This document shows, piece by piece, positions 19,121-53,063 of a stretch of DNA of 53,063 nt. The translations under genes and the position numbers were made by a program. The stretch spans positions 1 through 53,063 of the forward strand of contig CAMWVR010000004.1 of NCBI GenBank assembly GCA_947177795.1. Direction: 5' to 3'. How positions within the stretch are numbered: position 1 is the stretch's first letter; each line of letters opens with the position of its first letter. The DNA is from an uncultured Clostridia bacterium (GTDB taxonomy: Bacteria; Bacillota; Clostridia; Christensenellales; UBA3700). The notes beneath the pieces were generated by a model. It ran no database searches. It saw nothing but the letters and a program-made list of their open reading frames with translations, and had not been told where the DNA came from.

Positions 19121-19218
19121 GTAAGAAAAAAAGAAATGACAGAACGATGTTGGTTTAAGAAATAATTATACAAAACAAGTGCTAATGTTGCAAGACTTTG
19201 CATAATTCGTCATCAAGT

Positions 19219-21498
19219 ATGCGGTATCGTGGAGATATGAAAGTCAACACGGCATTGAAGTACGTCAAAAGTTATATTTTGGTTGCGCTGCTTACGGTAT
19301 TATGCCAAAGAGCGCAGATCGTGGGCGACTATAGGGGCTACGCATTGCCTCTGCTGGTCGCTTTGTTTTATTGCAGATTCAGCGTGGGTGTGATTTGCCC
19401 TTGCTATCTTGCGATATGTCTTATATTCGACCATTCGCTCTTCGGTATTTTCTACGCCGTTGCGCCCGTGATAATTTTGCTGATTGCAAAGTATTTGCAT
19501 TATTTGTTTGCAAGACCTATGCGTCTCAAAGCGCTTATTTGCTATTGCGTGTTGTGTTTGCTCCCCCTTGCGGTGCTTGACTTCAAAATGACTGCGACGG
19601 TCGACTTCATAGTCTATCTCGTGTCGCAAGTCGTGGTGGCTATGCTTTTCTGCGTAATATGTTACGCCGTGTGCGTGCGAGGCATTGGCAGAAAGTTGAG
19701 CGTAGACGAAAGAGTGGGCGGATTCGTATTTTTGGCGGTCATTGCAAGCGGAGTCCATTCTCTCGATATATACGGCTTCAATATTTATTATCTTGCGTTG
19801 GGACTTGCTATACCTTATTTATTTCGCAACTTTTCTTTTTCTCAAGGCGTAGTCATTGCGGGGGCGATTGCAATAGGCGGTTGTCTTTCGGGCATCAATC
19901 TTGCAATGGCGGGCGCGATAATGCTGATTTTCTTTGCCGCTTACGTATTCGTCGTCAACAAGTGGGTGGCGTCTTTGGCGGCTGTGATGATACATATTAT
20001 ATGCGGGATCTATTTCAACGCTTTTAAGGGCGTGTATTGGCTCAACCTTATAGGATTTGCCGTAGGTATTCTTATCGTGACGGCATTGTCGGATAAGGTC
20101 ATGGCAAAACTGCCGTCGTTTAAATTCGGAGACGGCAGACAGAGCGCAAGAGAACTCGTCAACAGGACCAGGCGCGACCTTGCAGGTCGTCTGTCCACGG
20201 TGTCGGGAGTATTCGGCGAGATGTCGCAGGTGTATTCCCAAAACGTAGTGCGCTACGCTCCGCCGATGCAAGCCGCACCCTCGCTTGCCGAGGAGATAAT
20301 GCTCAAGACGTGCGGCAACTGTATCAACAGAGAATACTGTCAAGGTATGATGGGCATGGAATTGTCGCAGGCGCTTGAAGGCGTCGTGCGCACAGTGCTT
20401 ACTTCGGGCAAGGTCACGATAGAGGATCTGCCCACCGTCATATCGTCCAAGTGTATTCAGTTGCCCGCATTGCTTGCGACTTGCAATCAAACGGCGTTGT
20501 CTTATGACGTGAGATACAATTCGGGCAGGGAATTGGAAGTGGATCAAAATCTTATATCGTCTCAACTTATGGGCGTATGCGAATTTCTTTCCGAACTCGG
20601 AGAGGAAGTAAAAAGCGCTGTCAATATTGACGACAAACTCGACGAGAGAATAGTCGAGGAGTTGGGATATAACAATATCGTGTGCAGCGACGTTATGTCG
20701 ATCGTCAAAAACGGTAAGCATACGATATCCCTTATCGTCAGAGAAAGAGACAGAGAAAAGAAAGCGCTGTTGCAAGTGCTGTCTAAACTGACAAATACGC
20801 AAATGCAACTCAAGGAAGAGAAAAAAACTATCGACGGCAGATACTGCATGACGTTCGTCAATACGCCGAAATACAACGTAACTTACGCTACGGCGACTTG
20901 TACCAAACCCAATTCGCCTGCGTCTGGAGATACCTATACCGTGACAAAACTCAAGCACGATAAGGTGCTTATCGCCTTGTGCGACGGAATGGGCAGCGGC
21001 GTTGACGCGAGAGAGGGCAGTCAGCGGGCGCTCAATATGGTCAGCTCTTATTACAAGGCGGGGTTTGACAACGTCAATTCTTTAAAACTCGTCAACAGAT
21101 TGCTCTCCGTCATCTCCAAAGACAACTTCAACGCTCTGGATATGTGCGTCGTCGATCTTGAACTCGGCACTGCCGACTTTATTAAGCAGGGCGGCGTACA
21201 AAGCGTGATTAAGAGACTTGACAGCGTGCAGGTCATCGACAGCAAGGCGCTTCCGCTTGGCATTGTGGAAGAGGCGACTCCGCAAGTCAACCGTCAGCTT
21301 CTCTCCGTCGGGGAAATGGTGGTAATGTTCAGCGACGGAATTATGGATACGCTTACGCTTGCGGGTATCAAGCATATCGTCACTACGCTTGCGACGCTCA
21401 ATCCTCAGCAGATTTGCGACGAAATAATCAATCAAGCCAAAGCTATGGGATTGAAGGACGACTCCAGCGTGGTTGTATTCAGATTGAGTACGCAGTAA
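19219..21498 (+). CDS. spoIIE: Stage II sporulation protein E (multi-TM N-terminus plus PP2C-type phosphatase)
   Basis: About 10 hydrophobic helices, then a PP2C-like C-terminus (LCDGMGSG, MFSDGI). The start is ambiguous: TTG 19198, ATG 19219 or ATG 19237. Confidence 0.85.
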   Translation: MRYRGDMKVNTALKYVKSYILVALLTVLCQRAQIVGDYRGYALPLLVALFYCRFSVGVICPCYLAICLIFDHSLFGIFYAVAPVIILLIAKYLHYLFARPMRLKALICYCVLCLLPLAVLDFKMTATVDFIVYLVSQVVVAMLFCVICYAVCVRGIGRKLSVDERVGGFVFLAVIASGVHSLDIYGFNIYYLALGLAIPYLFRNFSFSQGVVIAGAIAIGGCLSGINLAMAGAIMLIFFAAYVFVVNKWVASLAAVMIHIICGIYFNAFKGVYWLNLIGFAVGILIVTALSDKVMAKLPSFKFGDGRQSARELVNRTRRDLAGRLSTVSGVFGEMSQVYSQNVVRYAPPMQAAPSLAEEIMLKTCGNCINREYCQGMMGMELSQALEGVVRTVLTSGKVTIEDLPTVISSKCIQLPALLATCNQTALSYDVRYNSGRELEVDQNLISSQLMGVCEFLSELGEEVKSAVNIDDKLDERIVEELGYNNIVCSDVMSIVKNGKHTISLIVRERDREKKALLQVLSKLTNTQMQLKEEKKTIDGRYCMTFVNTPKYNVTYATATCTKPNSPASGDTYTVTKLKHDKVLIALCDGMGSGVDAREGSQRALNMVSSYYKAGFDNVNSLKLVNRLLSVISKDNFNALDMCVVDLELGTADFIKQGGVQSVIKRLDSVQVIDSKALPLGIVEEATPQVNRQLLSVGEMVVMFSDGIMDTLTLAGIKHIVTTLATLNPQQICDEIINQAKAMGLKDDSSVVVFRLSTQ

Positions 21499-21501
21499 TT
21501 A

Positions 21502-22041
21502 TTAAATTACTTCTTTGATTTCTTCGACGTTGATTTGAGTTACGTTGGATAATTTTTCTTTGTCAAATTCCAATAAACACAAATGCATAGTCATAGCGGT
21601 TGCATAACCTTTGTTTCCTACTACTATTACCGATACGGTGACATTCAATGTGTTGTCAATGATTTCATAGCTTTTGATATCACTGTCTAAACCGAGGCAC
21701 GTTCTTACTCTGGAGATAATAACGAGGGATTTGTTATTGAAAAACTGTTCGTCGTAATCTTGAAATATTTCTAAAATTCTTTCGTTGAATATGTCAGATT
21801 CATTTTCTCCGTATATCGGGGAAGAGGTGTCTTCGTAAAATGCCGATAGGTCTTCTACAGATTTTATTATCGTCGCATAATCTATAAGACTTGCGCCATA
21901 TTCGTAATACTTAAATTCAAAATCTTTAGAACTTTTATCTACCAAAGGCGATTCACTGTCATTGCAGGAGCAAAGTGCGACAGATAAAGTCATTGCGACA
22001 ATCAATATTATAGTAACTAAAAAAATTTTTGAACTTCTCAT
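21502..22041 (-). CDS. Lipoprotein with a single copy of the domain duplicated in the 48165-53063 paralog array
   Basis: Signal peptide plus Cys (VALCSCND). Shares the motif series SVEDLSAF .. YDEQFFNNKSLVIISR .. YEIIDNTLNVTV .. LLEFDKEKLSNVTQINVEEI with the array proteins. Confidence 0.8.
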   Translation of the reverse strand: MRSSKIFLVTIILIVAMTLSVALCSCNDSESPLVDKSSKDFEFKYYEYGASLIDYATIIKSVEDLSAFYEDTSSPIYGENESDIFNERILEIFQDYDEQFFNNKSLVIISRVRTCLGLDSDIKSYEIIDNTLNVTVSVIVVGNKGYATAMTMHLCLLEFDKEKLSNVTQINVEEIKEVI

Positions 22042-22230: not shown

Positions 22231-23676
22231 ATGATTTTAAAGTACAAATATCACAGCGATTCGGGTCTGCTTGAGGCATATCGCAGCTATACGCTTGCTC
22301 AAAACAATTCGCTGTCCGACACGATAGTCATTACGTCGACGGCGTCGGACGCAGAGAGATATAATTATTGCCTTGAATTTATTTGTTACAACAGCAAAAG
22401 CATTCCTAAGGCGCAATACGTCTCGCCGATACTCAACTATAGCGGCGGTATTTCTTTTGCAATACCCAACAATCTCACGGAATTCAGAGGTCACGTAGAT
22501 ATGCAACTCACAGGCTACGACCCAGTCGACAACTCAATAGTATTCAAGAGCGTGAGCAAGAATTGCAAGGCGTTTGACGTAGAGGGCTCTCTTTGCGTAT
22601 TGGAAAAAGATCTCAACGACACTCCCAACGTCTTCACCGAAGTGCTCAAACAACTTGAAGATTTGCGTAATATCCGCCAGGATATAATTGAAGAGGCAAT
22701 GAAAAAGTTTAGCGCGCAGATACTGGATATGGTCGCAAAATTTAAGTGGTGCAAAGTTAAATTTTATGACAGGGGAAAACTTATTGAAGAGCAATGGGTT
22801 ACGGTAGGTTCAAAGCTGACGGAGCCGTCCTATACTTTGCCCGCTAACTGCGTCGTCGTGGGAGGCTGGTACAATCCCGCAACGGAAACAATGTGGGATA
22901 TGGACAACGACACGGCGCAGGATTCTATGGAATTGGCTCTAAACTATATGACGGACGACGTAGTAATATCCGACGGAATAGTCAGTTCTTTCGGGAGACA
23001 TACGCGCTCGCATATTTATCTTCCCGAGTATTACGAGGGACGTAAAGTAAATGCTATTATCTACGACAACTGTAACGTGCCTTATGAATCTAATCTTCAT
23101 TTTGGCAACAATATGGAGTATTTTGAAGGTATTCTTTCGCATCAAAACGTATTGGGAATTTATTTCCCGCAGAATAATCCGTACGTGGATAGTTTCAACG
23201 GATTTCTATATTCAAAAAGCCAAGATGATTTTACGTTGTATTATGCGCCGAAATTACATCAGAATGATACGATTGCCGTAATGGACGGATGTAGGGGTAT
23301 CTATAATTTTGCAATCAATTCAGCAAGAGGACTGAGCAGGCTCATTCTTCCCGACAGTTTGGAATATCTTTATGAGAAGTGTATCGTTAATACCGACATA
23401 CAAACGTTGAAGTTGCCGCCTAATATACGTTATATAGACCAGCGCGCCGTATTCAACAACTTCAGTCTAAAGGAGATAATTTTCGAAGGAGATATTTCAA
23501 GCCTCATTACTGACGAGACCTTTGTCAACGAGGATATAAAGGGCGTTGTTACGCGACCGAAACTTGTTGTTTATCCTCAGTATTACTCAAATTACAAGGC
23601 GAGAGGTCTTGCTTACGAGATAGAAGTAATAGGTCAAGAATATTTTGACGACAGATACGAGCCGAAGGGAGAATAG
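22231..23676 (+). CDS. Hypothetical protein with C-terminal BspA-type leucine-rich repeats; no signal peptide seen
   Basis: GGAG RBS. C-terminal LILPDSLEYLYEKCIVNTDIQTLKLPPNIRYIDQRAVFNNFSLKEIIF. Confidence 0.7.
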   Translation: MILKYKYHSDSGLLEAYRSYTLAQNNSLSDTIVITSTASDAERYNYCLEFICYNSKSIPKAQYVSPILNYSGGISFAIPNNLTEFRGHVDMQLTGYDPVDNSIVFKSVSKNCKAFDVEGSLCVLEKDLNDTPNVFTEVLKQLEDLRNIRQDIIEEAMKKFSAQILDMVAKFKWCKVKFYDRGKLIEEQWVTVGSKLTEPSYTLPANCVVVGGWYNPATETMWDMDNDTAQDSMELALNYMTDDVVISDGIVSSFGRHTRSHIYLPEYYEGRKVNAIIYDNCNVPYESNLHFGNNMEYFEGILSHQNVLGIYFPQNNPYVDSFNGFLYSKSQDDFTLYYAPKLHQNDTIAVMDGCRGIYNFAINSARGLSRLILPDSLEYLYEKCIVNTDIQTLKLPPNIRYIDQRAVFNNFSLKEIIFEGDISSLITDETFVNEDIKGVVTRPKLVVYPQYYSNYKARGLAYEIEVIGQEYFDDRYEPKGE

Positions 23677-34929: not shown

Positions 34930-35916
34930 ATGGATAAATATATACCGCCTTATGACTTAACAGACGAAATGCTTGATTTAGTTGCTCAAATTATGGAAAC
35001 GCTTGGGCAATTGAACGGCGTTAACGGACTGGAAAAACTTCCCAAACTGCGCAGAGTGAGCAGAATCAAGTCCATACATTCGTCTCTTGCGATAGAAAAC
35101 AATACGTTGTCTATTGAACAAGTCACTGACGTAATTGACGGCAAGAGAGTATTGGGACCGCAAGAAGATATTTTGGCAGTGAGAAATGCTAACGAAGCAT
35201 ATAAAATTTTAGAAGAAATTGACCCCTATGAGATAAAAGATTTGCTTAAAGTACACGGCGTTATGATGCAAGGGCTTGTAGCAGAAGCGGGGCAACTGAG
35301 AACAGGACAAGTTGGCGTGTATAACGGTGATGGAGAAGTGATTCATATTGCACCGTCTTCTGATATTGCGCCTACGTTACTTACAGGGCTATTTAATTGG
35401 GTAAAGACCTCAAAAGTCAATATGTTAATAAAATCAAGCATATTTCATTATGAATTTGAATTTATCCATCCTTTTAGAGACGGCAATGGCAGAACAGGTA
35501 GACTTTGGCAAACGGCGTTGCTTGCAAGTTGGAAGGATATATTCGCTTGGATACCTATAGAAAGTATAATTAAAGACAATCAGGAAGAATACTATAAAGC
35601 AATTATGCAGTCCACAAGTCAAGGTAAATCCAATGCCTTTATTGTATTTATGCTAGACATCATTAACAAAGCAATTAAAGATATAGTCAAAGATACGACA
35701 AATCACTTCAATCATATCAATAATTATATTGCTTCTTTGCTTAAAGTCGTAGATAGTTATCCTCAATCGGCAAAAGAACTTATGGCAAAACTTAATTTAA
35801 AATCAAAAGACAGTTTTAGAAAGAACTATTTATATCCTGCAATTGACGCGGGGCTTGTGGGAATGACCGAGCCGGATAAACCCACGAGTAAAAATCAAAG
35901 ATATTTCAAAATCTAA
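34930..35916 (+). CDS. Fic-family protein (class II, intramolecular inhibitory motif)
   Basis: Fic motif HPFRDGNGRTGR. N-terminal inhibitory-type motif SLAIEN, matching (S/T)xxxE(G/N). Confidence 0.9.
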   Translation: MDKYIPPYDLTDEMLDLVAQIMETLGQLNGVNGLEKLPKLRRVSRIKSIHSSLAIENNTLSIEQVTDVIDGKRVLGPQEDILAVRNANEAYKILEEIDPYEIKDLLKVHGVMMQGLVAEAGQLRTGQVGVYNGDGEVIHIAPSSDIAPTLLTGLFNWVKTSKVNMLIKSSIFHYEFEFIHPFRDGNGRTGRLWQTALLASWKDIFAWIPIESIIKDNQEEYYKAIMQSTSQGKSNAFIVFMLDIINKAIKDIVKDTTNHFNHINNYIASLLKVVDSYPQSAKELMAKLNLKSKDSFRKNYLYPAIDAGLVGMTEPDKPTSKNQRYFKI

Positions 35917-42385: not shown

Positions 42386-42625
42386 ATGAGAGAAATTATA
42401 AAACACATCGATGAAGTAAAAAGAAGAGTGGGGCTTATCGTAGGTCAGCCCTTGACTTTTGAGGTCAACAAAGGTCGCAACAAGTTTGTCAAATTCGACG
42501 GATATATCCAAGACGCTTATCCGGCGATATTTACCGTGCGATGCATGATTGAGGGCGAGGAAGAATTGCTCTCGTATTCGTATAACGATATCTTGACTCG
42601 CAACGTTAGGATAAATAAAAAATAG
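42386..42625 (+). CDS. veg: Veg-family protein
   Basis: 79 aa. GRNKFVKFDGYIQDAYPAIFTV and SYSYNDILTRNV are characteristic of Veg/DUF1021. Confidence 0.85.
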   Translation: MREIIKHIDEVKRRVGLIVGQPLTFEVNKGRNKFVKFDGYIQDAYPAIFTVRCMIEGEEELLSYSYNDILTRNVRINKK

Positions 42626-42690
42626 TTTTTGTCATATTGCCTTATTTAACGCAATATACTATGGTGTAAAAACAACTGTGCGGAGGATAT

Positions 42691-44190
42691 ATGGCAATCA
42701 ATACAGTATTTAAGAGCGTAGGCTCGGATTATGAAAGAAATCTTGACGGAAAACAAATAGTGACGCAGTGCAACTTTGACACCACGTCCAAGGGCGGCGT
42801 GACGAAAGTGTGCGCATTGTCGAGCGACGCTCAAATCACGAAGGTACAGGCGCTGTCAAAACTAATCAAGATCAGCGGAAGAGTTTCGCTCAAACTCGTC
42901 TATCTTGACGGAGAGGGGAAACTCGGCAGTTTTGACTATATCTCCGACTTCTCGGAAGACATTGCCGACGATGCGGTCATTGCAGATATGCCGTGCTTGG
43001 TAAGAGCAAGTATAGTAGATAGCGTATCCAGCGTATCGGGAGCGGAAATCAAGGTGCAGACGGTCGTCGAATTGTCGCCAACGGTCGTTGAAATCAACAC
43101 CGTCGAACTTCTCGAAGAGGGCGAGGGCGCTCTTGCGTTGCGTCAAGAGCAAGATTATCAAAGATATCTCGCCACCGTCAACGAAGAATTGGAAGTGAGC
43201 GAAGAGTACGCTTGCGGAGCAAGAGTCGACGACGTGCTTTTCTATGACGCCAAAGTCTTGGTCTGCAACGTCGACAACGACGACGAAAAGTTGACTGTCA
43301 GCGGTCAATTGGAGATCAGCGTAATCTATTCAAGCGAAGGCGTTGAGGCTACGAAGAATATCAATCTGCCTTTCGTGCAGGAACTTGCGGCTCGCGGAGA
43401 GAATTTGCGCGCTTGCATAGCCGCTAATATCAAAGACAGCAGACTCATCATTGAGGGCGGAGAAAACGACAATACTCTCAAGATGATAATTTGTATATCC
43501 TTGCAGGGATTCGTCATGCAAATCGATAGGACATCGGCGATCGTAGACTTGTATTCGCCCACCAACGCTTTGCAAGTGAGCAAAGAGACGATAAGCTTTG
43601 ACAGACAAAACGGCGTAATGCGTTTTGAAGAGAGAATAAGCGGAAGCGTGGCTGTCGACGACGGCGACGAGGGGATCAAGAATATCATCAGCAGCGTGGT
43701 CACGCAAAACACTCTTTCCAACCTCGTGGCAATGCAGAATTGTATACTTGCCGAAGGCATACTTAACACCTGCGTGATCTATATGAGCGAGGGCGGCAAT
43801 ATCAAGTGCATTCAAGTGGAATTGCCGTATTCGCTGCAATTTGACAAAGAAGGCGTGTCGGCAGGAGATATCCTTTGCGGCAGCGCTATTGCGACGGATT
43901 GCGCGCACAAAGTCAAGAGAGACAGAGAAATCGAGTTGACGGCAAACGTCGTGTTGTCGGTATGCTCCAAGACTCCCGTCGAAAACGTCGTGATCAAGTC
44001 GCTTGAAGAGGGCGAGTGTCTCGAGGTCAACGCAAGCGCAATAAGCGTATATCTCCCAAGCAAGGGCGAAAGCATTTGGCAGGTCGCAAAGACTTTGGGT
44101 ATGTCAATAGAAAGCATCATGGCGCAAAATCCCGACCTCGGCGACGTCATGCAAGGCGACGAAAGAATCGTAATCTATCGCGAAGTGTAA
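42691..44190 (+). CDS. DUF3794 (SPOCS)-type repeat protein with a C-terminal LysM-like domain
   Basis: GGAGGA RBS. C-terminal ISVYLPSKGESIWQVAKTLGMSIESIMAQNPDL. Conserved neighbourhood with veg in spore formers. Confidence 0.7.
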   Translation: MAINTVFKSVGSDYERNLDGKQIVTQCNFDTTSKGGVTKVCALSSDAQITKVQALSKLIKISGRVSLKLVYLDGEGKLGSFDYISDFSEDIADDAVIADMPCLVRASIVDSVSSVSGAEIKVQTVVELSPTVVEINTVELLEEGEGALALRQEQDYQRYLATVNEELEVSEEYACGARVDDVLFYDAKVLVCNVDNDDEKLTVSGQLEISVIYSSEGVEATKNINLPFVQELAARGENLRACIAANIKDSRLIIEGGENDNTLKMIICISLQGFVMQIDRTSAIVDLYSPTNALQVSKETISFDRQNGVMRFEERISGSVAVDDGDEGIKNIISSVVTQNTLSNLVAMQNCILAEGILNTCVIYMSEGGNIKCIQVELPYSLQFDKEGVSAGDILCGSAIATDCAHKVKRDREIELTANVVLSVCSKTPVENVVIKSLEEGECLEVNASAISVYLPSKGESIWQVAKTLGMSIESIMAQNPDLGDVMQGDERIVIYREV

Positions 44191-44221
44191 AGCACACTGG
44201 AACGTCAATAACGAATTATAA

Positions 44222-44258
44222 TAAGATCTCGCCGTGGCGGCGAGGTCTTATGCTTTTT
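44222..44258 (+). terminator. Rho-independent terminator
   Basis: taagatctcgcc-gtggc-ggcgaggtctta (12-bp stem with one G-U pair), then tgcttttt. Confidence 0.75.
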
Positions 44259-44273
44259 ATTTTTATACTGATG

Positions 44274-44422
44274 AGATTTCTCCACTTCGGTCGAAATGAT
44301 ATATTATATTTGAGCAGCAATGACAAAAGATTTTATGTCACCTCGAGCGCAGTCGAGAGGTCTAATCCTATTATTAAATTGGTAGAGATTTCTCCATTTC
44401 GCTGCGCTTCAGTCGAAATGAC
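44274..44422. repeat. Repeat cluster of three hairpin units plus a conserved spacer
   Basis: 44274-44300 (TTTC/GAAA). 36-nt spacer at 44301-44336. 44337-44363 (reverse, identical to 33712-33738). 44386-44422 (37-nt class). Confidence 0.85.
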
Positions 44423-44556
44423 AGATTATATCCGAGCAGCAGTGACATTTGGGGCTTGTTCCTTTACATAAAATTTGCACAATTTAGATTAGTTTTACAA
44501 GTGGCGTATTGATATGAAATAGGCGTTGTGATAAAATAAACATGAAGAGGTGTTGT

Positions 44557-45444
44557 ATGGATAAGTTTATTCAGGGATGTATGCGTATCAAAGATTTGAC
44601 GACTGCGCAAGTCAGAGAGTTGATAGACGCCAATTTGGAAGTTGGTATCAACGTGTTCGACCATGCGGATATATACGGCGGAGGAGAGTGCGAAACGCTT
44701 TTTGGCAAAGCTCTCAAAGAAGCGCCGCAGTTGAGAGATAAAATAATTTTGCAGACCAAAGGCGGTATCGTCAAAGATTTGTCTTGTCACAGATACGACA
44801 ACAGCGCCAACTACCTCATCGATTGCGTACACAAGAGTATCAAAAGATTGGGCGTGGAAAAGGTGGATAGATTTCTTATCCACAGACCCGACGTGCTCCT
44901 CAATCCCGAAGAGACGGCAAAGGCATTTGACAGACTTGCGCAAGAGGGCGTTGTCGGCGAATTTGGAGTAAGTAATTTTGCAGGCAGTCAAATTACGCTT
45001 TTGCAATCGAGTTGCAAACAAAAAATCAAATATAATCAAGTCAGAGTAAGCGTCTTCCATTGCCCAATGATAGAGTACGGCGTGAATTACAATCGCTTCA
45101 ACGACGCCGGCGTCAATAGAGACGGCGGTACTCTCGATCATTGCAGATTAAACGAAGTGCAGATACAATGCTATTCGCCGTATAAAGGCAAGAAAAAATC
45201 ATTTATAGGCGATATCAGATATCCCAAATTGAACAAGCTTCTCAAAGAATTGGCTTTTAAATACGACGTAACGCCCAACGCTATCGCCGCCGCTTGGCTG
45301 CTCAAGCACCCTGCGGGTTTTGCCGTCATCAACGGCACCACGCAGCCAGAGAGAGTAAAACAAATCGCAAAGGCAAAGGACATCGCTTTGACTCGCGGCG
45401 AGTGGTACGAACTATATCATTCTTTGGGACGTAAGTTGCCGTAA
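44557..45444 (+). CDS. Aldo/keto reductase family oxidoreductase
   Basis: FDHADIYGGGECETLFG motif. AGAGG lies 6 nt before the ATG at 44557. The track start at 44542 is an alternative. Confidence 0.85.
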   Translation: MDKFIQGCMRIKDLTTAQVRELIDANLEVGINVFDHADIYGGGECETLFGKALKEAPQLRDKIILQTKGGIVKDLSCHRYDNSANYLIDCVHKSIKRLGVEKVDRFLIHRPDVLLNPEETAKAFDRLAQEGVVGEFGVSNFAGSQITLLQSSCKQKIKYNQVRVSVFHCPMIEYGVNYNRFNDAGVNRDGGTLDHCRLNEVQIQCYSPYKGKKKSFIGDIRYPKLNKLLKELAFKYDVTPNAIAAAWLLKHPAGFAVINGTTQPERVKQIAKAKDIALTRGEWYELYHSLGRKLP

Positions 45445-45462
45445 GCGGCTTAAATGTATAAG

Positions 45463-45493
45463 AAGGGGAGAGGCATTTGCCTCTCCCCTTTTT
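45463..45493. terminator. Terminator shared by convergent genes
   Basis: aaggggagaggc-attt-gcctctcccctt gives a 12-bp perfect stem, followed by ttt. Confidence 0.85.
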
Positions 45494-45496
45494 GCA

Positions 45497-48136
45497 TTAA
45501 TCCCAAAATTTTGAATATCTTGAAATCAAGTTTTGTATTTCGTCAATTGTCGTGAGTCCTTTGCCAATTGCTACTTTTAGATATTGACCGCCGAAAGCGT
45601 CAAATATCGTTTTGGGCACAGGACATATTTCTACAAATTCCTCGTATGTAAATAATCCGTATTTCTCGATATCCGCAAGATACGATTCTTCGTCAATTTT
45701 CATAGTTTGAGGATCAACTTCAAAAATATTTATCAATCCCGTGGTCACTCCTGGCATAGAGAGCATACCGTTGACATAATAACAAAGATGTCCGTAAGTC
45801 ACAGGACTCCAAGCAGAAGTTATTTCAGTTGATACTTTTACGTCGGTAAGTTGCACTTTGGTATAAGTCAGATTACCGTATTCGTCCACAGTCTGTTTGT
45901 TAAACCAATGCCCGATATATTTATCTGCGTCGTCTCGCAAGAATACGTATTGGTTGAGATCAAAATCCCAAAAACCGTGTTCGTCGATTACTTTTACAGA
46001 AGTGCCGTCGGAGAAGTATAGATTTGTCACTTTATATTCGCGTTGAGCCTCTTTATCTATGAAGAGAATCGGGGCGGTGTCGAAAGCGCCTGTTTTCATA
46101 TTCCATACCAAAAGTTCTTCATTGCCTGACAGGTCTTGCACTGCGACTTGACTTCCGTCTGAGAGAGTAATCAAAGAGTCATCGGCAACACACCCCGTAC
46201 TTCGATTTACGCTAAATGGGAAAGTTCTTGTGTAAGAATATGATTTATCACTTCTTGTCATAGTACATTTCATTGTTAATGTATATCTATCGTTTTCAAG
46301 ATCGCTTGAATCTAGACTTATGATTTCGTTTGTATAGGATGGAAGTGAAAAAATATTTATTGTTATTTCGCATATATGCGAGTCATTTCCTTTAATTGGA
46401 ACGATTTCGCCGGCGCTGTTTCTTAATTCAAAAACAGCTGCGCCGGTGATATCAAGCGCCGCATTGAATGCAAAATGTGTGCACATAACAAAATAGAAGT
46501 CTGTAGCCGAAGTGAAAACCAATTCGTTATTTTCGTCGAATTTAAAACTTGTTATTCTGTTAATACTTAAATCCACTGCTCCGTCCCATCGGTACCAATC
46601 GGATTTGTAACCGAAGTTGCCCATTACTTTTCGTCTATATGGCATGTTTTTTATAGCCTCTGCGGCGTTTAGCCTACCACCGGATGAGCATTTGCCGCTA
46701 TACCTGTCGTCTTTTGTTGAATGTGTTAGTATAGTTGACTTGACTTGTTTGGCGATATATGCATTAGGTAAATTTAAAGAACTGTCTCTATATTGTGAGT
46801 ATAGCAATGCAGCTACGCCTGTTACAAATGGCGCGGCAGCAGAAGTGCCTCCAAATTGGTTAGTGTATCCCGAGATATCATTTGGATAGTTGTTATTTTT
46901 AAGACAAGTAGTGGTAATATCTCTGCCGCCTGGCGCAAAAATACTAACAGTATTGGCTCCATAATTAGAGCCACTTTTATAAGGTAATTTAATACCTATT
47001 GCTTCGTCATCCCAAATATCACCATTAGAATATATTGCGCCAACGGAAATAACTCTGTTACTAAATTCTTGGTCATAAGAGTAATCGGAAGGAAAATAAT
47101 TTATCTTATCATTATTATTTTTCTCATTTCCAGCTGCACATACAAAAAGACCAGTAAAATTAATAATAGCAAATTTTACTGATGTATTTTCACTTTCACC
47201 ACCTCCGCTAAGATTAATTATATCAATGTCATTGTCAATAGCCCAAGTAATAGCATTTGCGATAGCCGTAGAATCAAATTTAACTTGTTGTTTCTTTATT
47301 CCATTTTCATCTATATATTCATATATGCGATCTACTTTAAGAGGAGCAATTTTTACTTTCCAACTTACTCCAAGCACGCCGTTTTCAGTAGCGCCGGTTG
47401 CGCCTATTACTCCTGCTACTCTTGTACCGTGTCCGTAAGTATCTTCAGTGTTGTCACTATCATCTATGAAATTCCAACCTGCCACTAGATTGCCATTCAA
47501 ATCTTCATGTTTTTCTATTCCGGAATCTATTACGCCGACTTTGACCGTATTGCTACCAATTGAATATTTCCAAGCGGCAGGTGCATTGATACCGTAAGTT
47601 CCATGTAATCCCCATTGATCTTGATATCTGTTTCCGTATTTTGCTTTTGGAGTATCTGTGGGTAAATCTGCAGGTTCATCATATGTGTTTGCGCCTGCCC
47701 ATAGCACTCCATCTATTTTTTGCAGTTGTTCTATAGCGTCTAATACGTTTTGTTTAGAATGTTCTTTGAGATCTATTTTAAAAATTTGACGAAAGCTATC
47801 TTTATTTAAATATAATTTATCCTCTATATTTCCCGTAAGGCTTGTTAGGTCTTTTATTGATTTTATAAAGGGAAATTTAGAGAATTTAGCGCTTTGACTT
47901 TTATTGACTTCGCTAGAATACTTGTCCATTACTACAATTACACAATTATCGTCGAAGTCTTCCTCTATGTCAATATCAGAGTATAATTTTTGTTCAAATC
48001 CGACAGGGAACAGCGCGACTTCTGCTTGCGCTGATATGATTCCGCTACATGAAATGCATAGCAGCGCAATGATAATTATCAAGATAAATGCAATTGCGTA
48101 AAGTTTTTTGTTGTATAAGAATTTTGTGTTTTTCAT
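45497..48136 (-). CDS. Secreted S8 subtilisin-like serine protease with I9-like propeptide, middle beta-rich region, C-terminal Hint domain and an 83-aa tail
   Basis: Triad motifs VGVIDSGI (Asp), HGTRVAGVIGA (His), GGTSAAAPFVTGVAALL (Ser). Signal peptide present. Hint start GCVADDSLITLSDGSQVAVQDL. GGAGGGA RBS. Confidence 0.9.
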   Translation of the reverse strand: MKNTKFLYNKKLYAIAFILIIIIALLCISCSGIISAQAEVALFPVGFEQKLYSDIDIEEDFDDNCVIVVMDKYSSEVNKSQSAKFSKFPFIKSIKDLTSLTGNIEDKLYLNKDSFRQIFKIDLKEHSKQNVLDAIEQLQKIDGVLWAGANTYDEPADLPTDTPKAKYGNRYQDQWGLHGTYGINAPAAWKYSIGSNTVKVGVIDSGIEKHEDLNGNLVAGWNFIDDSDNTEDTYGHGTRVAGVIGATGATENGVLGVSWKVKIAPLKVDRIYEYIDENGIKKQQVKFDSTAIANAITWAIDNDIDIINLSGGGESENTSVKFAIINFTGLFVCAAGNEKNNNDKINYFPSDYSYDQEFSNRVISVGAIYSNGDIWDDEAIGIKLPYKSGSNYGANTVSIFAPGGRDITTTCLKNNNYPNDISGYTNQFGGTSAAAPFVTGVAALLYSQYRDSSLNLPNAYIAKQVKSTILTHSTKDDRYSGKCSSGGRLNAAEAIKNMPYRRKVMGNFGYKSDWYRWDGAVDLSINRITSFKFDENNELVFTSATDFYFVMCTHFAFNAALDITGAAVFELRNSAGEIVPIKGNDSHICEITINIFSLPSYTNEIISLDSSDLENDRYTLTMKCTMTRSDKSYSYTRTFPFSVNRSTGCVADDSLITLSDGSQVAVQDLSGNEELLVWNMKTGAFDTAPILFIDKEAQREYKVTNLYFSDGTSVKVIDEHGFWDFDLNQYVFLRDDADKYIGHWFNKQTVDEYGNLTYTKVQLTDVKVSTEITSAWSPVTYGHLCYYVNGMLSMPGVTTGLINIFEVDPQTMKIDEESYLADIEKYGLFTYEEFVEICPVPKTIFDAFGGQYLKVAIGKGLTTIDEIQNLISRYSKFWD
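45749..46192 (-). other. Hint (Hedgehog/intein-like, BIL-type) module inside the protease gene
   Basis: Cys649 codon at 46192-46190 (hand-counted). Block-B-like VKVIDEHGFW. The module ends near YYVNGMLSMPG. Confidence 0.65.
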
Positions 48137-48164
48137 AGTTCATCCCTCCATATTTGTTTGTTGT

Positions 48165-49208
48165 TTATTCTTCGATTTGAGTTACGTTGATTTTCGTTAC
48201 AGTTGCTACCTGATCTCTATCTACTTCAAACATATAGGCACACGTCGTAATAGGCCATGGAATATAATAATCATCTGATTTTGGAGTAGACAACGTTATA
48301 TTTAATAAATCGTCTTTTATATCAAAGCTTTTTACTTTATAGAATCGGCTTTGTACTCTTCCTACAAATATTAGTATAAGAGATTTATTTTGGAAATAGG
48401 CGTCATCGTATTTTTCTAAAAGCGCAATAAATCTTTCTATAGTTTCGATAGAAGCATATTCATATATACTAAAATCTTTAAAAATGCTGAGTTCTTCCGA
48501 TGAATTTATTATAGGTGATGACGTAGCGGATTTTATTGTAACTAGATCATTAAAAATCTGTATGCCAACTTTTTGGTCAAGTTCTCCTATGCTTTCTTCC
48601 ACCTTTATTTGATTTATTTCTTTTGCAACTTGTTTGCTTATTTCAAATATGCGTACGTGCGTTCTTACTTCGGTAGTGGCATTGCCATTTGCAGTAACTA
48701 AGTTGACAGTCATTACGCCGTCTTTTATATCTACGGAATCATAAGTATAGTAATCGGCGGTTTCGTTAAATCTAAAAATCAATACAATAGAGCGTTTGCT
48801 AAAGAATTCTTCGTCATATTCATTTAATTTCTTGCTTACGTTATCGGATTTTAAAGTTGTATCTGTTTCGTCAAAGATTTTCAAATGCTTTTCTTCGCAG
48901 AAAGACTTGAGTTCTTCCACGGAGTTTATTTTCTCCGCAATATTGAGCTTGCTTTCGTCGTCGAAATAATCGGAGATATAGGGATTTTGGTCTTTTAAAT
49001 AGAATCGCGTTAGAGAAAGAGTATACGGCTCAATAATCTCATCGTCTCCGCTTGGCGCGCCCGACGGTTGTTCGGTTTCGCTTCCGCTTGGTATGCCTGA
49101 CGGTTGTTCTCTTGGGCGGCTGTTGGGATCGCAAGCGCACAGAATTGCTGACGTAGATAATACGCCGATCAACAACATTGCCATAAAAAAGCGTTTGAAA
49201 GATTTCAT
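48165..49208 (-). CDS. Two-domain lipoprotein, paralog P1 (domain types alpha + A)
   Basis: Signal peptide MKSFKRFFMAMLLIGVLSTSAILCAC. EQPSGxPSG linker, two copies. Two copies of a ~130-aa domain. Confidence 0.85.
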   Translation of the reverse strand: MKSFKRFFMAMLLIGVLSTSAILCACDPNSRPREQPSGIPSGSETEQPSGAPSGDDEIIEPYTLSLTRFYLKDQNPYISDYFDDESKLNIAEKINSVEELKSFCEEKHLKIFDETDTTLKSDNVSKKLNEYDEEFFSKRSIVLIFRFNETADYYTYDSVDIKDGVMTVNLVTANGNATTEVRTHVRIFEISKQVAKEINQIKVEESIGELDQKVGIQIFNDLVTIKSATSSPIINSSEELSIFKDFSIYEYASIETIERFIALLEKYDDAYFQNKSLILIFVGRVQSRFYKVKSFDIKDDLLNITLSTPKSDDYYIPWPITTCAYMFEVDRDQVATVTKINVTQIEE

Positions 49209-49326
49209 AGTTTTCCCTCCTATTATAATATATTCAATATAAATATATATTGTTAACTATAATTTTTGCTAAATATAAAAATAATAATCAAAATAAATTT
49301 TAATCTTTTGTATTAGGAGTATTTAT

Positions 49327-49356
49327 AGTATATCATAGGGTTTTGCCGCATGTCAA
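49327..49356 (-). promoter_or_regulatory. Internal promoter ahead of P1 and the protease
   Basis: The minus strand reads TTGACA (49356-49351), an 18-nt spacer, then extended -10 TGaTATACT (49335-49327). Confidence 0.5.
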
Positions 49357-49448
49357 TAGAAGCTTAAAAATTTATTAAAAATTTTTAACCTAATTTTACG
49401 CTACACGGCATACATAATTGCGCAACGAAGTCGAATAATATGAAAAGT

Positions 49449-50504
49449 TTATTCTTCAATTTCATTGACGTTTATTTGGTTAACGTTTGCTATCATATCT
49501 TTGTCCATTTCCAATATATATACGCAGGTAATAACATCGCAGGGATAAAAAGCCGGTTCGCTTGGAAGTTTCCTTGACAAAGTTATATTTAATGAGTTTT
49601 CATTGATTTCAAAATCTTTGACTCTAAAGAAATATCCGCTGCTTGCTCTAAATCTAAATAAAACCACTATTGACTTGTTTTGGAAAAATTCTTCATCATA
49701 TTTTTTTAAAGTTTCGATAATTTTATTATTTTGTCCAGTCAGTTTGTCGTCTGAAAATATCGGAGAAGTCTCTACATCGCAAAACGTATTGATTTCTTCA
49801 GTAGTATTTATAATGGCAGAGTAATTGGACTCTATATCTAATGAACTATCATCATAAATTTTAATGCCTATTTTTTGATCGAGTTCTCCTATGCTTTCTT
49901 CCACTTTTATTTCATTTATTTCTTTTGCTACTTGTTTGCTTATTTCAAATATGCGAACCTGGGTAGTAACGTCGGTAGTGGTATTGCCGTTGGCAGTAAC
50001 TAAGTTGACGGTCATTACGCCGTCTTTTATATCTATGGAATCATAAGTATAGAAGTCGGTGGTTTCTTTAAATCTGAAAATCAATACGATAGATCGCTTG
50101 CTAAAGAATTCTTCGTCGCATTCCTTTAATTTCTTGCTTACTTTATCGTATTTTAGAGAAGTATCCGTTTCGTCAAAGACTTTCAAATGCTTTTCTTCGC
50201 AGAAAGACTTGAGTTCTTCCACGGAGTTTATTTTCTCCGCAATATTAAGCTTGCTTTCGTCATTGAAATAATCGGAGATATAAGGATTCCGATTTTCTAA
50301 ATAGAATTGCGTTAGAGAAAGAGTATACGGCTCAATAATCTCATCGTTTCCGCTTGGCGCGCCCGATGGTTGTTCAGTTTCGCTTGGTACACCTGACGGT
50401 TGTTCTGTTGGGCGATCGTTGGGATTGCAAGCGCCCAGAATTGCTGACGTAGACAATACGCCGATTAACAACATTGCCATAAAAAAGCGTTTAAAAAATT
50501 TCAT
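49449..50504 (-). CDS. Two-domain lipoprotein, paralog P2 (beta + B)
   Basis: Canonical lipobox ILGAC. Two EQPSG linker copies. Confidence 0.85.
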   Translation of the reverse strand: MKFFKRFFMAMLLIGVLSTSAILGACNPNDRPTEQPSGVPSETEQPSGAPSGNDEIIEPYTLSLTQFYLENRNPYISDYFNDESKLNIAEKINSVEELKSFCEEKHLKVFDETDTSLKYDKVSKKLKECDEEFFSKRSIVLIFRFKETTDFYTYDSIDIKDGVMTVNLVTANGNTTTDVTTQVRIFEISKQVAKEINEIKVEESIGELDQKIGIKIYDDSSLDIESNYSAIINTTEEINTFCDVETSPIFSDDKLTGQNNKIIETLKKYDEEFFQNKSIVVLFRFRASSGYFFRVKDFEINENSLNITLSRKLPSEPAFYPCDVITCVYILEMDKDMIANVNQINVNEIEE

Positions 50505-50521
50505 AGTCTTTCCCCCTATAT

Positions 50522-51532
50522 TTATTCTTCGATTTGAGTTACGTTGATTTTCGTTACAGCTGCTACCTGATCTCTATCTATTTCAAACATATAGGCACAC
50601 GTCAAAATAGGCCATGGAATTGGAATATAACCATCTGATTTTGGAGTAGATAACGTTATATTTAATAAATCGTCTTTTATATCAAAGCTTTTTACTTTAT
50701 AGAATTCGCTTGATGGGTTTCCTCTAAATATTAATATAAGAGATTTATTTTGGAAATAGTCGTTATCGTATTTTTCTAAAAGCGCAATAAATCTTTCTAT
50801 GGTTTCGATAGAAACGTCTTCATATATACTAAAATCTTTAAAAATGCTGAGTTCTTCCGACGAATTTATTATAGGTGGTGACGTAACGGATTTTATTGTA
50901 ACTAGATCATTAAAAATCTGTATGCCAACTTTTTGGTCAAGTTCTCCTATGCTCTCTTTCACCTTTATTTGATTTATGTCTTTTGCAACTGTCTTACTTA
51001 TTTCAAATATGCGTATGTGCGTTCTTACTTCGGTAGTGGCATTGCCATTTGCAGTAACTAAGTTGACGGTCATTACGCCATCTTTTATATCAACGGAATC
51101 ATAAGTAGAGTGGTCGGCGGTTTCGTTAAATCTAAATATCAATACAATAGATCGCTTGCTAAAGAATTTTTCGTCGTATTCCTTTAATTTCTTGCTTACG
51201 TTATCGGATTTTAAAGTGGTATCTGTTTCGTCAAAGACTTTCAAATGCTTTTCTTCGCAGAAAGACTTGAGTTCTTCCACGGAGTTTATTTTCTCCGCAA
51301 TATTAAGTTTGCTTTCGTCATCGAAATAATCGGAGATATAGGGATTTTGGTCTTTTAAATAGAATCGCGTTAGGGAAAGAGTATACGGCTCAATAATCTC
51401 ATCGTTTCCGCTTGGCGCACCCGACGGTTGTTCTGTTGGGCGATCGTTGGGATTGCAAGCGCACAAAATTGTTGACGTAGATAATACGCCGATCAACAAC
51501 ATTGCCATAAAAAAGCGTTTGAAAAATTTCAT
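50522..51532 (-). CDS. Two-domain lipoprotein, paralog P3 (alpha + A)
   Basis: Near-identical signal peptide. One EQPSG linker copy. Second domain closely matches P1. Confidence 0.85.
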   Translation of the reverse strand: MKFFKRFFMAMLLIGVLSTSTILCACNPNDRPTEQPSGAPSGNDEIIEPYTLSLTRFYLKDQNPYISDYFDDESKLNIAEKINSVEELKSFCEEKHLKVFDETDTTLKSDNVSKKLKEYDEKFFSKRSIVLIFRFNETADHSTYDSVDIKDGVMTVNLVTANGNATTEVRTHIRIFEISKTVAKDINQIKVKESIGELDQKVGIQIFNDLVTIKSVTSPPIINSSEELSIFKDFSIYEDVSIETIERFIALLEKYDNDYFQNKSLILIFRGNPSSEFYKVKSFDIKDDLLNITLSTPKSDGYIPIPWPILTCAYMFEIDRDQVAAVTKINVTQIEE

Positions 51533-51549
51533 AGTCTTTTCCCCTATAT

Positions 51550-52512
51550 TTATTCTTCGATTTGATTTATGTTGATTTTTATCACATGTGAAACTTGTTC
51601 TTTATCTATTTCAAAATAGTACATATAGTCCAAAACGACAGTTGCTACGCCTCCATCGTATATTATAGGAAGAGACAGTGTAATATCTAAAGACTCTCCC
51701 TTGATTTCAAAACTTTTCACTCTGCTAAATCTACTGTCTCCTATTCTTCTGAAAACCAATACTAAAGACTTGTTTTGGAAATAGTCATTATCGTATTTTG
51801 CTAATTTTGTTAGAAGGTGTTCTTTATCTTGGGGAGAGAGATCTTCTCGTAAATCAAAATTTTCAAAATTGATGAGTTCCTCATAGGAATTTAATATTTT
51901 TGACGAGTTGTAAATTTCGGGTTTTACCCACAAGCCGCATCTATATATTTGAATACCCACTTTTTGGTCAAGGTCGCCAAGTTCTTCATGCACTTGTATT
52001 TGATTTATTTTCTTTGCAACTGTCTTACTTATTTCAAATATGCGAATCTGGGTCGTTACGTCGGTAGTGGTATTGCCGTTGGCAGTAACCAAGTTGACGG
52101 TCATTACACCGTCTTTAATACTTACGGAATCATAAACGTAGTTGTCAGTCGTCTCTTTAAATCTAAATATCAATACGATAGAGTAGTTTTTAAAAAATTC
52201 TTCATCGTATTCCTTTAATTTCTTGCTTACTTTATCGTATTTTAGAGAAGTATCCGTTTCGTCAAAGACTTTCAAATGCTTTTCTTCGCAGAAAGACTTG
52301 AGTTCTTCCACGGAGTTTATTTTCTCCGCAATATTGAGCTTGCTTTCGTCATTGAAATAATCGGAGATATAAGGATTTTGGTCTTTTAAATAGTATTGCG
52401 TCATTGCAAGGGTGTAGCTAGTGTCAAGCCTGTTGCAAGCGCATAGAATTAATGACGTAGATAATACGCCGATCAACAACATTGCCATAAAAAAGCGTTT
52501 AAAAAATTTCAT
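51550..52512 (-). CDS. Two-domain lipoprotein, paralog P4 (beta + C)
   Basis: Same signal peptide. No EQPSG linker. Distinct second domain. Confidence 0.85.
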   Translation of the reverse strand: MKFFKRFFMAMLLIGVLSTSLILCACNRLDTSYTLAMTQYYLKDQNPYISDYFNDESKLNIAEKINSVEELKSFCEEKHLKVFDETDTSLKYDKVSKKLKEYDEEFFKNYSIVLIFRFKETTDNYVYDSVSIKDGVMTVNLVTANGNTTTDVTTQIRIFEISKTVAKKINQIQVHEELGDLDQKVGIQIYRCGLWVKPEIYNSSKILNSYEELINFENFDLREDLSPQDKEHLLTKLAKYDNDYFQNKSLVLVFRRIGDSRFSRVKSFEIKGESLDITLSLPIIYDGGVATVVLDYMYYFEIDKEQVSHVIKININQIEE

Positions 52513-52530
52513 AGTCTTTCCCCCTATATT

Positions 52531-53063
52531 TTATTCTTCGATTTCATTGGCGTTTATTTGTTTAACGTTCTCTATCATATCTTTGTCCATTTCCAATATA
52601 TATACGCAGGTAATTACGTCGCAGGAATAATCGCCTGGTTCATCAGGCAGTTTTCTTGACAAAGTTATATTCAGTGAATTTTCATTGATTTCAAAATCTT
52701 TAACTCTAAAGAAATATCCGCTACTTGCCCTAAATCTAAATAAAACCACTATGGACTTGTTTTGGAAGAATTCTTCATTATAATTTCTCAAAATTTCGAT
52801 TGTTTTCTTAGGACAGGTCTTTTCGTCGCAAAAGTCATTAAGTTCTTTGCCCGTACTTATTATTGTTGAAAGGTTATTGTCATTTACATATGAATCCCTA
52901 TAAATTTTAATACCTACTTTTTGGTCGAGTTTTCCTAATCTTTCCTCTACCTTTATTTGATTTATTTCATTTGCAACTGTCTTACTTATTTCAAATATGA
53001 GAATCTGAGTCGTTACGTCGGTAGTGGTATTGCCGTTGGCAGTAACCAAGTTGACGGTCATTA
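52531..53063 (-). CDS. Two-domain lipoprotein, paralog P5 (beta + B), 5' end cut by the window edge
   Basis: The reading frame is open to the window end. C-terminal stretch FFQNKSIVVLFRFRASSGYFFRVKDFEINENSLNITLSRKLP is identical to P2. Confidence 0.8.
   Translation of the reverse strand, partial: MTVNLVTANGNTTTDVTTQILIFEISKTVANEINQIKVEERLGKLDQKVGIKIYRDSYVNDNNLSTIISTGKELNDFCDEKTCPKKTIEILRNYNEEFFQNKSIVVLFRFRASSGYFFRVKDFEINENSLNITLSRKLPDEPGDYSCDVITCVYILEMDKDMIENVKQINANEIEE

Follow-up and report, generated by a model that had tools for sequence, protein, structure and literature searches.

In Gram-positive lactococci, a dedicated lipoprotein, PrtM, is encoded next to the secreted S8 (subtilisin-family) proteinase PrtP and is required for PrtP maturation. 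PrtM is a PrsA-type parvulin foldase encoded by a single conserved gene, and PrtP is anchored by its own C-terminus. A locus of this general kind occupies positions 45497-53063, on the minus strand, of a 53,063-nt stretch of Clostridia DNA (hereafter, the window): an array of lipoprotein genes, LpE to LpA in gene order, is followed by the gene for a secreted S8 protease that ends in a Hint-like domain and a C-terminal domain (CTD). Each lipoprotein carries two copies, d1 and d2, of a domain termed X here, and the protease has a variable, non-catalytic "mid" domain between its S8 and Hint-like parts. The conserved pairing of these genes and the co-variation of their parts point to a specific partnership between an upstream lipoprotein and the S8-Hint protease. 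As judged from sequence comparison, its specificity appears to sit in the variable half of the lipoprotein, d2, and in the mid domain.

The likeness to PrtM-PrtP lies in the dedicated lipoprotein gene beside a secreted S8 protease gene in a Gram-positive lineage. Unlike PrtM, domain X has no Pfam match of the parvulin kind, and the lipoproteins form a diversified array rather than a single gene.

Dentilisin of Treponema denticola, encoded by prcB-prcA-prtP, offers a second precedent. PrcB interacts with PrtP, is needed for detection of the PrtP protein and has been proposed to help anchor the complex, and the PrcA lipoprotein is cut by PrtP (PMC8167434). The locus shares with dentilisin a lipoprotein gene first and a surface S8 protease gene last, and LpA matches PrcB in position: a gene for a lipobox protein on the same strand, 28 nt upstream of the S8 gene. 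Unlike dentilisin, it has no recognizable similarity to PrcB/PrcB_C or the PrtP equivalog and lacks PrcA; its protease is not a lipoprotein and has a Hint-like tail; its lipoproteins are two-domain proteins in one to five copies with cassette-like variable halves; and the host belongs to gut Clostridia rather than the spirochaetes. By analogy, the locus may function like the lipoprotein-subtilase pairs of dentilisin or PrtM/PrtP while being a member of neither, its lipoproteins representing an unrelated protein family.

Other systems share single features. In cohesin-dockerin pairs, a tethered module binds a matching non-catalytic module of a secreted enzyme, and specificity types co-vary. A tethered partner and a non-catalytic module recur here, and one protein with X repeats carries a dockerin; the folds are unrelated, however, and binding here would be deduced from co-variation. 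As in bacterial intein-like and Hedgehog-type Hint proteins, the Hint-like module follows a secreted passenger and has the first Cys and the block-B His, with no splicing-competent C-terminus. In polymorphic toxins, Hint and subtilisin domains are both listed as processing proteases of Sec-exported toxins (PMC3482391). The present locus differs in that the region after Hint is conserved (58-84% identity), the variable genes are the upstream lipoproteins and the passenger is, by its sequence, an active protease. Neisseria mafA-mafB, whose literature also deals with Hint domains, likewise dedicates an upstream lipoprotein to a downstream secreted protein (PMC7738311), but it serves outer-membrane secretion in a diderm, mafB islands carry downstream immunity genes, and a sequence relation is not expected. 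Literature searches on Hint domains with subtilases or lipoproteins led to polymorphic-toxin and intein reviews and to MafA/MafB, and to no account of this pairing; the cassette-type co-variation with a protease domain, and the generalization of the pairing to secreted proteins that end in Hint-CTD, seem to be undescribed.

Lipoprotein genes upstream of S8-Hint proteases

Full-length relatives with the S8-mid-Hint-CTD architecture fall into ~30 clusters at 42-75% identity. Co-occurrence of domain X with such proteases, a check proposed in the preliminary description of this DNA, was borne out: a same-strand lipoprotein gene lies 12-66 nt upstream at all nine orthologue loci inspected, from 100% down to 44% identity, and the partner contains X at seven (the window/L024, L001, L003/L013, L020, L023 and L021; loci are numbered with an L prefix and individual proteins with a P). 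The number and arrangement of X domains vary: L020 (62% identity) has three X-X lipoproteins, L023 (59%) has two single-X lipoproteins, and L021 (51%) has one lipoprotein with X as its C-terminal domain. At the remaining two loci, L022 (45%) and L025 (44%), whose proteases branch deeply, the partners lack X and share a second uncurated domain, Y (E 2e-14), with the motifs YSLQ.AYD.G...YYG.YNG...IWK (L022 4890-6934; L025 3523-3951; P0041, P0059, P0060, P0070, P0071) and no Pfam match. Fusion of Y to the C-terminal side of X, seen elsewhere in proteins of 317-374 aa (E 4e-10 to 2e-4), ties the two partner types together.

The association extends beyond this protease. A metagenome scan with conserved Hint-CTD motifs recovered 80 loci, in which a Hint-CTD module (55-75% identical) ends S8 proteases of several architectures as well as non-S8 passengers of 680 to >2200 aa; some passengers in L036-L105 carry LRR_5 or Listeria-Bacteroides repeats. 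Directly upstream there is commonly a gene for an X, Y or other lipoprotein, and some of these genes stand in tandem arrays (four in L050). The partners of Hint-CTD proteins belong to several unrelated families. Under a strict automatic rule (lipoprotein gene on the same strand, ≤200 nt upstream), such a neighbour precedes 18 of 34 non-redundant Hint-CTD genes and 24 of 336 control genes taken from the same loci (odds ratio 14.6, p=1.5e-10), counts that derive from simple open reading frame (ORF) calls and in which several of the misses are X or Y genes truncated by contig ends.

Cassette variation and co-variation with the protease

The two halves of the lipoproteins have different histories. 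The d1 copies are homogenized among paralogs (84-94% nucleotide identity, dS 0.2-0.55, omega ~0.2), and the d2 copies belong to old cassette types common to several species, with 53-62% nucleotide identity and dS >1.2 between types. With each lipoprotein written as [d1-d2], the window array reads [A-B][A-F][A-C][A-B][A-C] and those of other loci read [A-C][A-C] in L001, [A-C][A-B] in L013, [A-G][A-B][A-H] in L020 and, for single-X proteins, [B][B] in L023. A trace of exchange among d1 copies may be visible between the window and contig L024, an independent assembly of the same locus: all 10 mismatches fall in a 154-nt tract of LpD d1 (52200-52353), where L024 reads like LpE (162/164) and the window reads like LpB (160/164). 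The tract reflects either gene conversion between paralogs or an assembly chimera.

Recent change is concentrated in two loops of d2. In the recent duplicates LpA and LpC, replacements sit in the β2-β3 and β4-β5 loops, on the same edge of the β meander; the ratio of nonsynonymous to synonymous differences is 15:0 across the 24 loop codons, 8:5 elsewhere in d2 and 10:16 in d1 (Fisher p=0.013 and 0.002). The same loops are elevated in another type C comparison, LpA with the second lipoprotein of L001 (omega 1.5), and are conserved in type B (omega 0.08).

On the protease side, mid is a mosaic domain whose type goes with the d2 type of the proximal lipoprotein, not with the remainder of the protease. 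The window and L001, whose proximal d2 are both type C, share 68% identity in mid; L013 and L023, both with a proximal type B, also share 68%; L001 and L013 share just 43% in mid, despite 97% in Hint-CTD, 76% in the propeptide and 68% in S8. One contiguous recombination block does not explain this pattern, since the propeptide and S8 domain, which lie between, do not follow it. Across the 10 loci with X-type partners (45 pairs), similarity of the proximal X domain correlates with that of mid (Mantel r=0.83, p=5e-5), and the correlation persists when S8 and Hint-CTD are controlled (partial Mantel r=0.66, p=2e-4). In the reciprocal partial tests the correlation is weak, at r ~0.25 (p ~0.09). The co-variation lends moderate support to a physical relationship between d2 and mid, moderate because the sample is small and comes down to three concordant pairs.

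Organization of the array

The preliminary description, made from the window alone, had listed five minus-strand lipoprotein genes followed 28 nt later by the protease gene, and the ORFs and spacers agree: from the protease (45497-48136) up through LpE, the spacers are 28, 240, 17, 17 and 18 nt. Its statement that the array runs on past the window end did not hold. LpE (52531-53063; in full a type A d1 followed by a type B d2) is truncated where the window stops, and its partial ORF is matched end to end by P0002. Contig L024, from a public metagenome-assembled genome (MAG; GCA_029067405.1), is 99.9% identical to window positions 42531-53063 and 100% identical across LpE; there the full-length protein has 312 aa, and upstream of its gene come a 220-nt intergenic region and a divergent GHMP-kinase gene. 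The complete order in L024 is the divergent GHMP kinase, LpE, LpD, LpC, LpB, LpA, the protease, a convergent aldo-keto reductase, SipL and Veg. Because LpE is the first gene there, the array comprises exactly five genes. Independent support for five copies comes from word depth in metagenome run X1, where the 5' segment shared by the lipoprotein genes reaches 91 against 16.9 for the single-copy protease, a ~5.4-fold excess; together, the second assembly and the depth rule out an assembly artefact.

The protease-proximal LpA (48165-49208, 347 aa) consists of a signal (49134-49208), a Pro/Ser/Gly-rich linker (49026-49133), d1 (48585-49025) and a type C d2 (48168-48584). LpB (49449-50504, 351 aa) has its signal at 50430-50504, the linker at 50328-50429, d1 at 49887-50327 and a type B d2 at 49452-49886; in LpC (50522-51532, 336 aa), the corresponding parts lie at 51458-51532, 51386-51457, 50945-51385 and, for a type C d2, 50525-50944. 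LpD (51550-52512, 320 aa) has a signal with lipobox (52438-52512), d1 (51976-52416) and the unique type F d2 (51553-51975). The Pro/Ser/Gly-rich linker after the Cys is thus found in three of the four complete lipoproteins, LpD being without one. All four signals have a basic n-region, a hydrophobic core and an LCAC or LGAC lipobox with Cys26, as have those of homologues; lipidation is predicted.

The 240-nt gap ahead of LpA (49209-49448), for which an internal promoter had been proposed, contains a GGAGGG ribosome-binding site and, at 49356-49327 on the minus strand, the region's highest-scoring sigma-70-like match (11/12; TTGACA-18-TATACT, TG-extended). Promoter-like matches across the region are as frequent as in shuffled sequence (31 observed, 30 expected), so the site counts as a consensus match only; the gap possibly holds an internal promoter for LpA and the protease.

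Domain X

Each lipoprotein is a tandem duplication of a ~135-145-aa domain. The d1 and d2 copies match each other by blastp at E 1e-9 to 1e-17 and 27-31% identity, and the domain hidden Markov model (HMM) matches each protein twice; the two-copy architecture noted earlier is confirmed, and the four motifs reported for it occur in the order given in both d1 and d2. Neither whole lipoproteins nor single domains have a significant Pfam or NCBIfam match.

Close two-domain relatives are few: a word-indexed search of 5.8 billion proteins found 14 clusters only, all unannotated and from gut MAGs of uncultured Clostridia or Christensenellaceae, and a word-indexed profile search with the broad alignment A4 gained four close fragments and nothing else. 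An exhaustive search of 1.84 billion representatives with a profile of 14 single domains revealed a far wider family: 733 clusters (50% identity) pass E≤1e-3, and 92 of them also pass E≤1e-10. The best 150 of the 733 are mostly single-domain proteins of 160-200 aa, and about half of the short ones among them have a recognizable lipobox. Longer members contain three to seven X copies, and three of 10 long proteins carry an extra domain: a dockerin, a BlaR1/M56 sensor or a BspA-type leucine-rich repeat (LRR) region. The 91 distant relatives that were checked match no consistent Pfam or NCBIfam family.

An AlphaFold2 model of LpB d1, built from a 34-sequence alignment, reached pLDDT 86.8 and pTM 0.78 (full-length LpB, pLDDT 73). 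Its order is a strand, a helix, three short helices, a four-strand antiparallel meander, a short helix and a last strand. In Foldseek searches, the confident single-domain model had no counterpart in PDB (best E 0.47, TM ~0.2) and the two-domain model had no match in PDB or BFVD; best E values across models were 0.07-0.47, and no inhibitor, chaperone or NisI/SpaI-like fold was among the matches. A PDB sequence-profile search came back empty. The YD..FF motif and, in the long strand, an E..K pair are nearly invariant, and none of the invariant residues has an evident catalytic look. Judged by profile and model, domain X is an extracytoplasmic module that occurs in Firmicutes and has no curated family, with a predicted alpha/beta fold of ~135 aa. 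The family looks like a binding module, given its occurrence as small lipoproteins and as repeats with dockerin, BspA-LRR and BlaR1/M56 partners.

The lysozyme-inhibitor family PF16743 (PliI) weakly matches LpB d2 (E 0.17), probably as noise. The same family appears as a precomputed label on S8 proteases that contain FG-GAP/VCBS repeats and are related to the window protease (P0241, P0246, P0247, P0254, P0266).

The S8-Hint protease

The 879-aa protease begins with an ordinary signal peptide (48017-48136, AQA/EV site) and a propeptide (47642-48016), followed by the S8 catalytic domain (46637-47641), the 140-aa mid domain (46217-46636), the Hint-like domain (45767-46216) and an 89-aa CTD (45500-45766). 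The match to Peptidase_S8 (PF00082) is strong (135.7 bits; cut-off 21.8), and among solved structures the closest are intracellular subtilisins and thermitase (PDB subtilases down to E 3e-23). Its best NCBIfam match is mycosin, itself below cut-off, which places it closer to mycosin/thermitase-type S8 enzymes than to PrtP. D204, H236, N337 and S432 are invariant across 13 orthologues; with its triad kept in all of them, a lipoprotein partner would serve an active enzyme. Pfam recognizes the S8 domain and a weak Hint only: it reports no cell-wall or membrane anchor domain, and neither mid nor the propeptide has a match.

The Hint-like region scores below threshold with PF01079 (14.8-18 bits, cut-off 29.7) and also matches a DnaB intein N-terminus (E 0.16 in PDB; E 8e-4 for NCBIfam PRK07773). 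Cys649 and the block-B His of "VIDEH" are invariant, and the last block, "YYVNGMLSMPG", lacks the terminal His-Asn; cleavage at the N-terminal junction is therefore expected rather than splicing, and the tail is probably released by its own cleavage at Cys649. Conservation is greatest in this tail, with orthologue identities of 62-88% in Hint and 58-84% in CTD, against 46-72% in the catalytic domain and 27-68% in mid, the most variable part.

Lipoproteins at protease-less loci and genomic surroundings

Related genomes were compared at two chromosomal slots. Slot 1, between GHMP kinase/NUDIX/rubrerythrin and aldo-keto reductase/SipL/Veg genes, holds one or two X-X lipoproteins with the protease in L001/L002, L003-5 and L013; in L006/7/14 and L010/11/16, it holds an X-X and a single-X lipoprotein, and the protease is replaced by a 72-aa ORF with one or two double helix-turn-helix (HTH) genes. 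Slot 2, between LRR_5 and SpoIIE/AlaRS genes, holds lipoproteins with the protease in L020 and L023, and a lipoprotein with four HTH genes in L008. The replacement cassette, found in both slots, combines an opposite-strand 63-72-aa ORF with genes for one to four ~146-aa proteins in tandem that each contain a pair of HTH_3-type domains (L006 8978-10680; L010 4455-6885; L008 8987-11210). The same replacement may have occurred close to the window genome: in a strain represented in run X3, with flanks 95-99% identical, the end of the reductase gene (45444) is joined to the LpA stop (48164) by 972 nt that stand in for the 2.7-kb protease gene, near the 988-nt interval of L006.

In the window itself, slot 2 holds a lone single-X lipoprotein of 179 aa with a lipobox (21502-22041, minus strand), 24 kb from the protease and flanked by SpoIIE (19198-21498) and an LRR_5 gene (22231-23676). 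For most of the 733 clusters in the wider X family, no link to a protease is known. The preliminary description had asked whether the family occurs without linkage to proteases in other genomes, and in part it does, through close homologues that lack the protease, the 21502-22041 member and this wide family.

The array and protease are AT-rich (35.1% GC, against 43.5% in the remaining window). A second low-GC stretch at ~34-38 kb (32-36% GC) includes a Fic/DOC-family gene (34930-35916). On the plus strand, 2064-10952 is a very large ORF (2962 aa) in which a BspA-type LRR_5 region lies close to the N-terminus; it has no further confident Pfam domains and no Hint-CTD module.

A model for the partnership and its alternatives

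The reading tentatively preferred here is that the array lipoproteins are membrane-tethered partners matched to the secreted S8 protease, which they would dock or regulate. The lipoproteins would be held by their lipid anchor, with a linker in three of them, and would present a constant d1 and a variable d2. The protease would be exported through its ordinary signal peptide with an intact triad, and its Hint-like tail would be shed at Cys649. Two adjacent variable loops of d2 would then bind the mid domain, and this binding would hold, position or restrain the protease at the membrane surface. The protease-adjacent gene would encode the matching partner, and the other paralogs would provide further specificities. 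We infer both the physical binding and its effect, which may be docking and retention or control of activity.

Several observations weigh against this reading. The co-variation sample amounts to 10 loci and essentially three concordant pairs, and binding to a non-catalytic domain would rest on that co-variation. A pure anchor model leaves unexplained the d2 types B and F of the window, which do not match its own mid type. The lipoproteins at protease-less slots are intact and under purifying selection (omega ~0.2 for the first lipoproteins of L001 and L006), so their persistence does not strictly require a protease encoded in cis. The locus was found in gut metagenome DNA runs alone, no RNA run holding it having turned up. 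The proposal that the array is a partner set for one protease thus stands in part: the upstream lipoprotein at nine of nine loci and the d2-mid co-variation uphold it, whereas the homologues without a protease do not fit.

An inhibitor or immunity role is the main rival to docking, although we regard it as unlikely. Membrane-tethered lipoproteins would shield the surface of the producing cell from the protease it secretes: the proximal gene would neutralize the cell's own enzyme, and the other paralogs and orphans would neutralize variant proteases of neighbours. This would account for the presence of several d2 types in one locus, some of which match mid domains of other species, and for lipoproteins that persist without the protease, like orphan immunity genes. 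Presence or absence of the protease gene among close strains, its hypervariable domain and the loop-focused replacement with omega>1 in one lineage are also in keeping with it, and the upstream position would have the lipoprotein made with or before the enzyme. On non-matching cassettes, orphan copies and protease presence/absence, this explanation is ahead of docking. Against it, the co-varying part of the protease is the non-catalytic mid domain, not S8; X has no similarity to solved protease-inhibitor folds; type-B cassettes lack a diversifying signal; there is no sign that the protease is an antibacterial weapon; and lipoproteins are seldom the immunity proteins in the polymorphic toxin systems catalogued so far (PMC3482391).

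Less probable again, the lipoproteins may be independent variable surface proteins, engaged in ligand binding or adhesion and diversified under pressure from phage or host antibodies, which the protease processes, sheds or merely adjoins. The breadth of the X family, mostly without known protease linkage, and the existence of unlinked and protease-less copies suit this view; the Pro/Ser/Gly-rich linkers could be cleavage sites, and the cutting of PrcA by PrtP sets a precedent (PMC8167434). Neither the non-contiguous co-variation of d2 and mid nor the presence of unrelated lipoprotein families at the same position before Hint-CTD proteins would be predicted by it.

There is a slim chance that the Hint-like domain acts in transfer, with a Cys649 thioester passing the passenger covalently to the partner lipoprotein or a lipid presented by it, much as Hedgehog is transferred to cholesterol, in a sortase-independent form of anchoring. 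Much the same low probability attaches to the broader proposal that the locus is one case of a widespread and undescribed two-part surface system in gut Clostridia, in which a Hint-CTD passenger (an S8 protease or other domains of up to >2000 aa) is handed over covalently, in Hedgehog-like fashion, to a passenger-specific upstream lipoprotein. The invariant Cys1 without a terminal His-Asn leaves N-terminal cleavage or transfer as the sole available chemistry, the Hint-CTD is the most conserved part of the protease (62-88%) and ends many passengers preceded by lipoprotein genes, and no anchor domain was detected in the protease. The X, Y and other lipoproteins, however, are unrelated and share no conserved acceptor feature, the Hint assignment falls short of its threshold (18 bits, cut-off 29.7), and by default bacterial intein-like domains undergo plain hydrolytic self-cleavage.

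The slimmest chance belongs to the idea that X is a very distant but true PrcB_C homologue in a dentilisin-type complex. The preliminary description had likened the X motif order to PrcB_C, and gene order and general logic do follow prcB-prcA-prtP (PMC8167434). The profiles, on the other hand, give no signal at any level tried. PF14343 (PrcB_C), run without a PrcB positive control, has no match at E≤10 in whole lipoproteins or single domains, and no NCBIfam PrcB model matches the lipoproteins or their relatives. Some distant X domains have an "SGSY" loop after a hydrophobic strand, which may resemble the PrcB_C "TGGY" motif; these domains were treated as bridge candidates for that reason, and 10 of them likewise lack a PF14343 match, as do the 91 distant relatives at E≤1e-3. 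Homology to PrcB_C is therefore not supported at the level of sequence profiles; PDB fold and sequence searches returned no PrcB-named chain, so the PDB nulls do not bear on the PrcB fold. The locus has no PrcA-like counterpart, the protease scores 46 bits against a cut-off of 300 for the PrtP equivalog (NF033595), and PrcB is reported to have no homologues beyond oral Treponema (PMC8167434).

A polymorphic toxin-immunity locus is unlikely, because the post-Hint CTD is conserved (58-84%) and the variable genes lie upstream, the downstream gene being the convergent aldo-keto reductase.

Implications

Contacts of gut anaerobes with their host and with other microbes are shaped by surface and secreted proteases, and how such proteases are retained and controlled on Clostridia-class cells is poorly known beyond sortase and S-layer anchoring. 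The locus defines an uncurated extracytoplasmic domain family and a conserved lipoprotein/S8-Hint gene pair with a testable specificity between d2 loops and mid. It also exemplifies a broader rule, namely that secreted proteins terminated by Hint-CTD tend to have their own upstream lipoprotein. If Hint chemistry did link the two, this would be a new mode of protein anchoring. If the cassettes form a true docking or inhibitor code, they would constitute a new specificity system, with a bearing on strain-level variation in Christensenellaceae-like gut bacteria.

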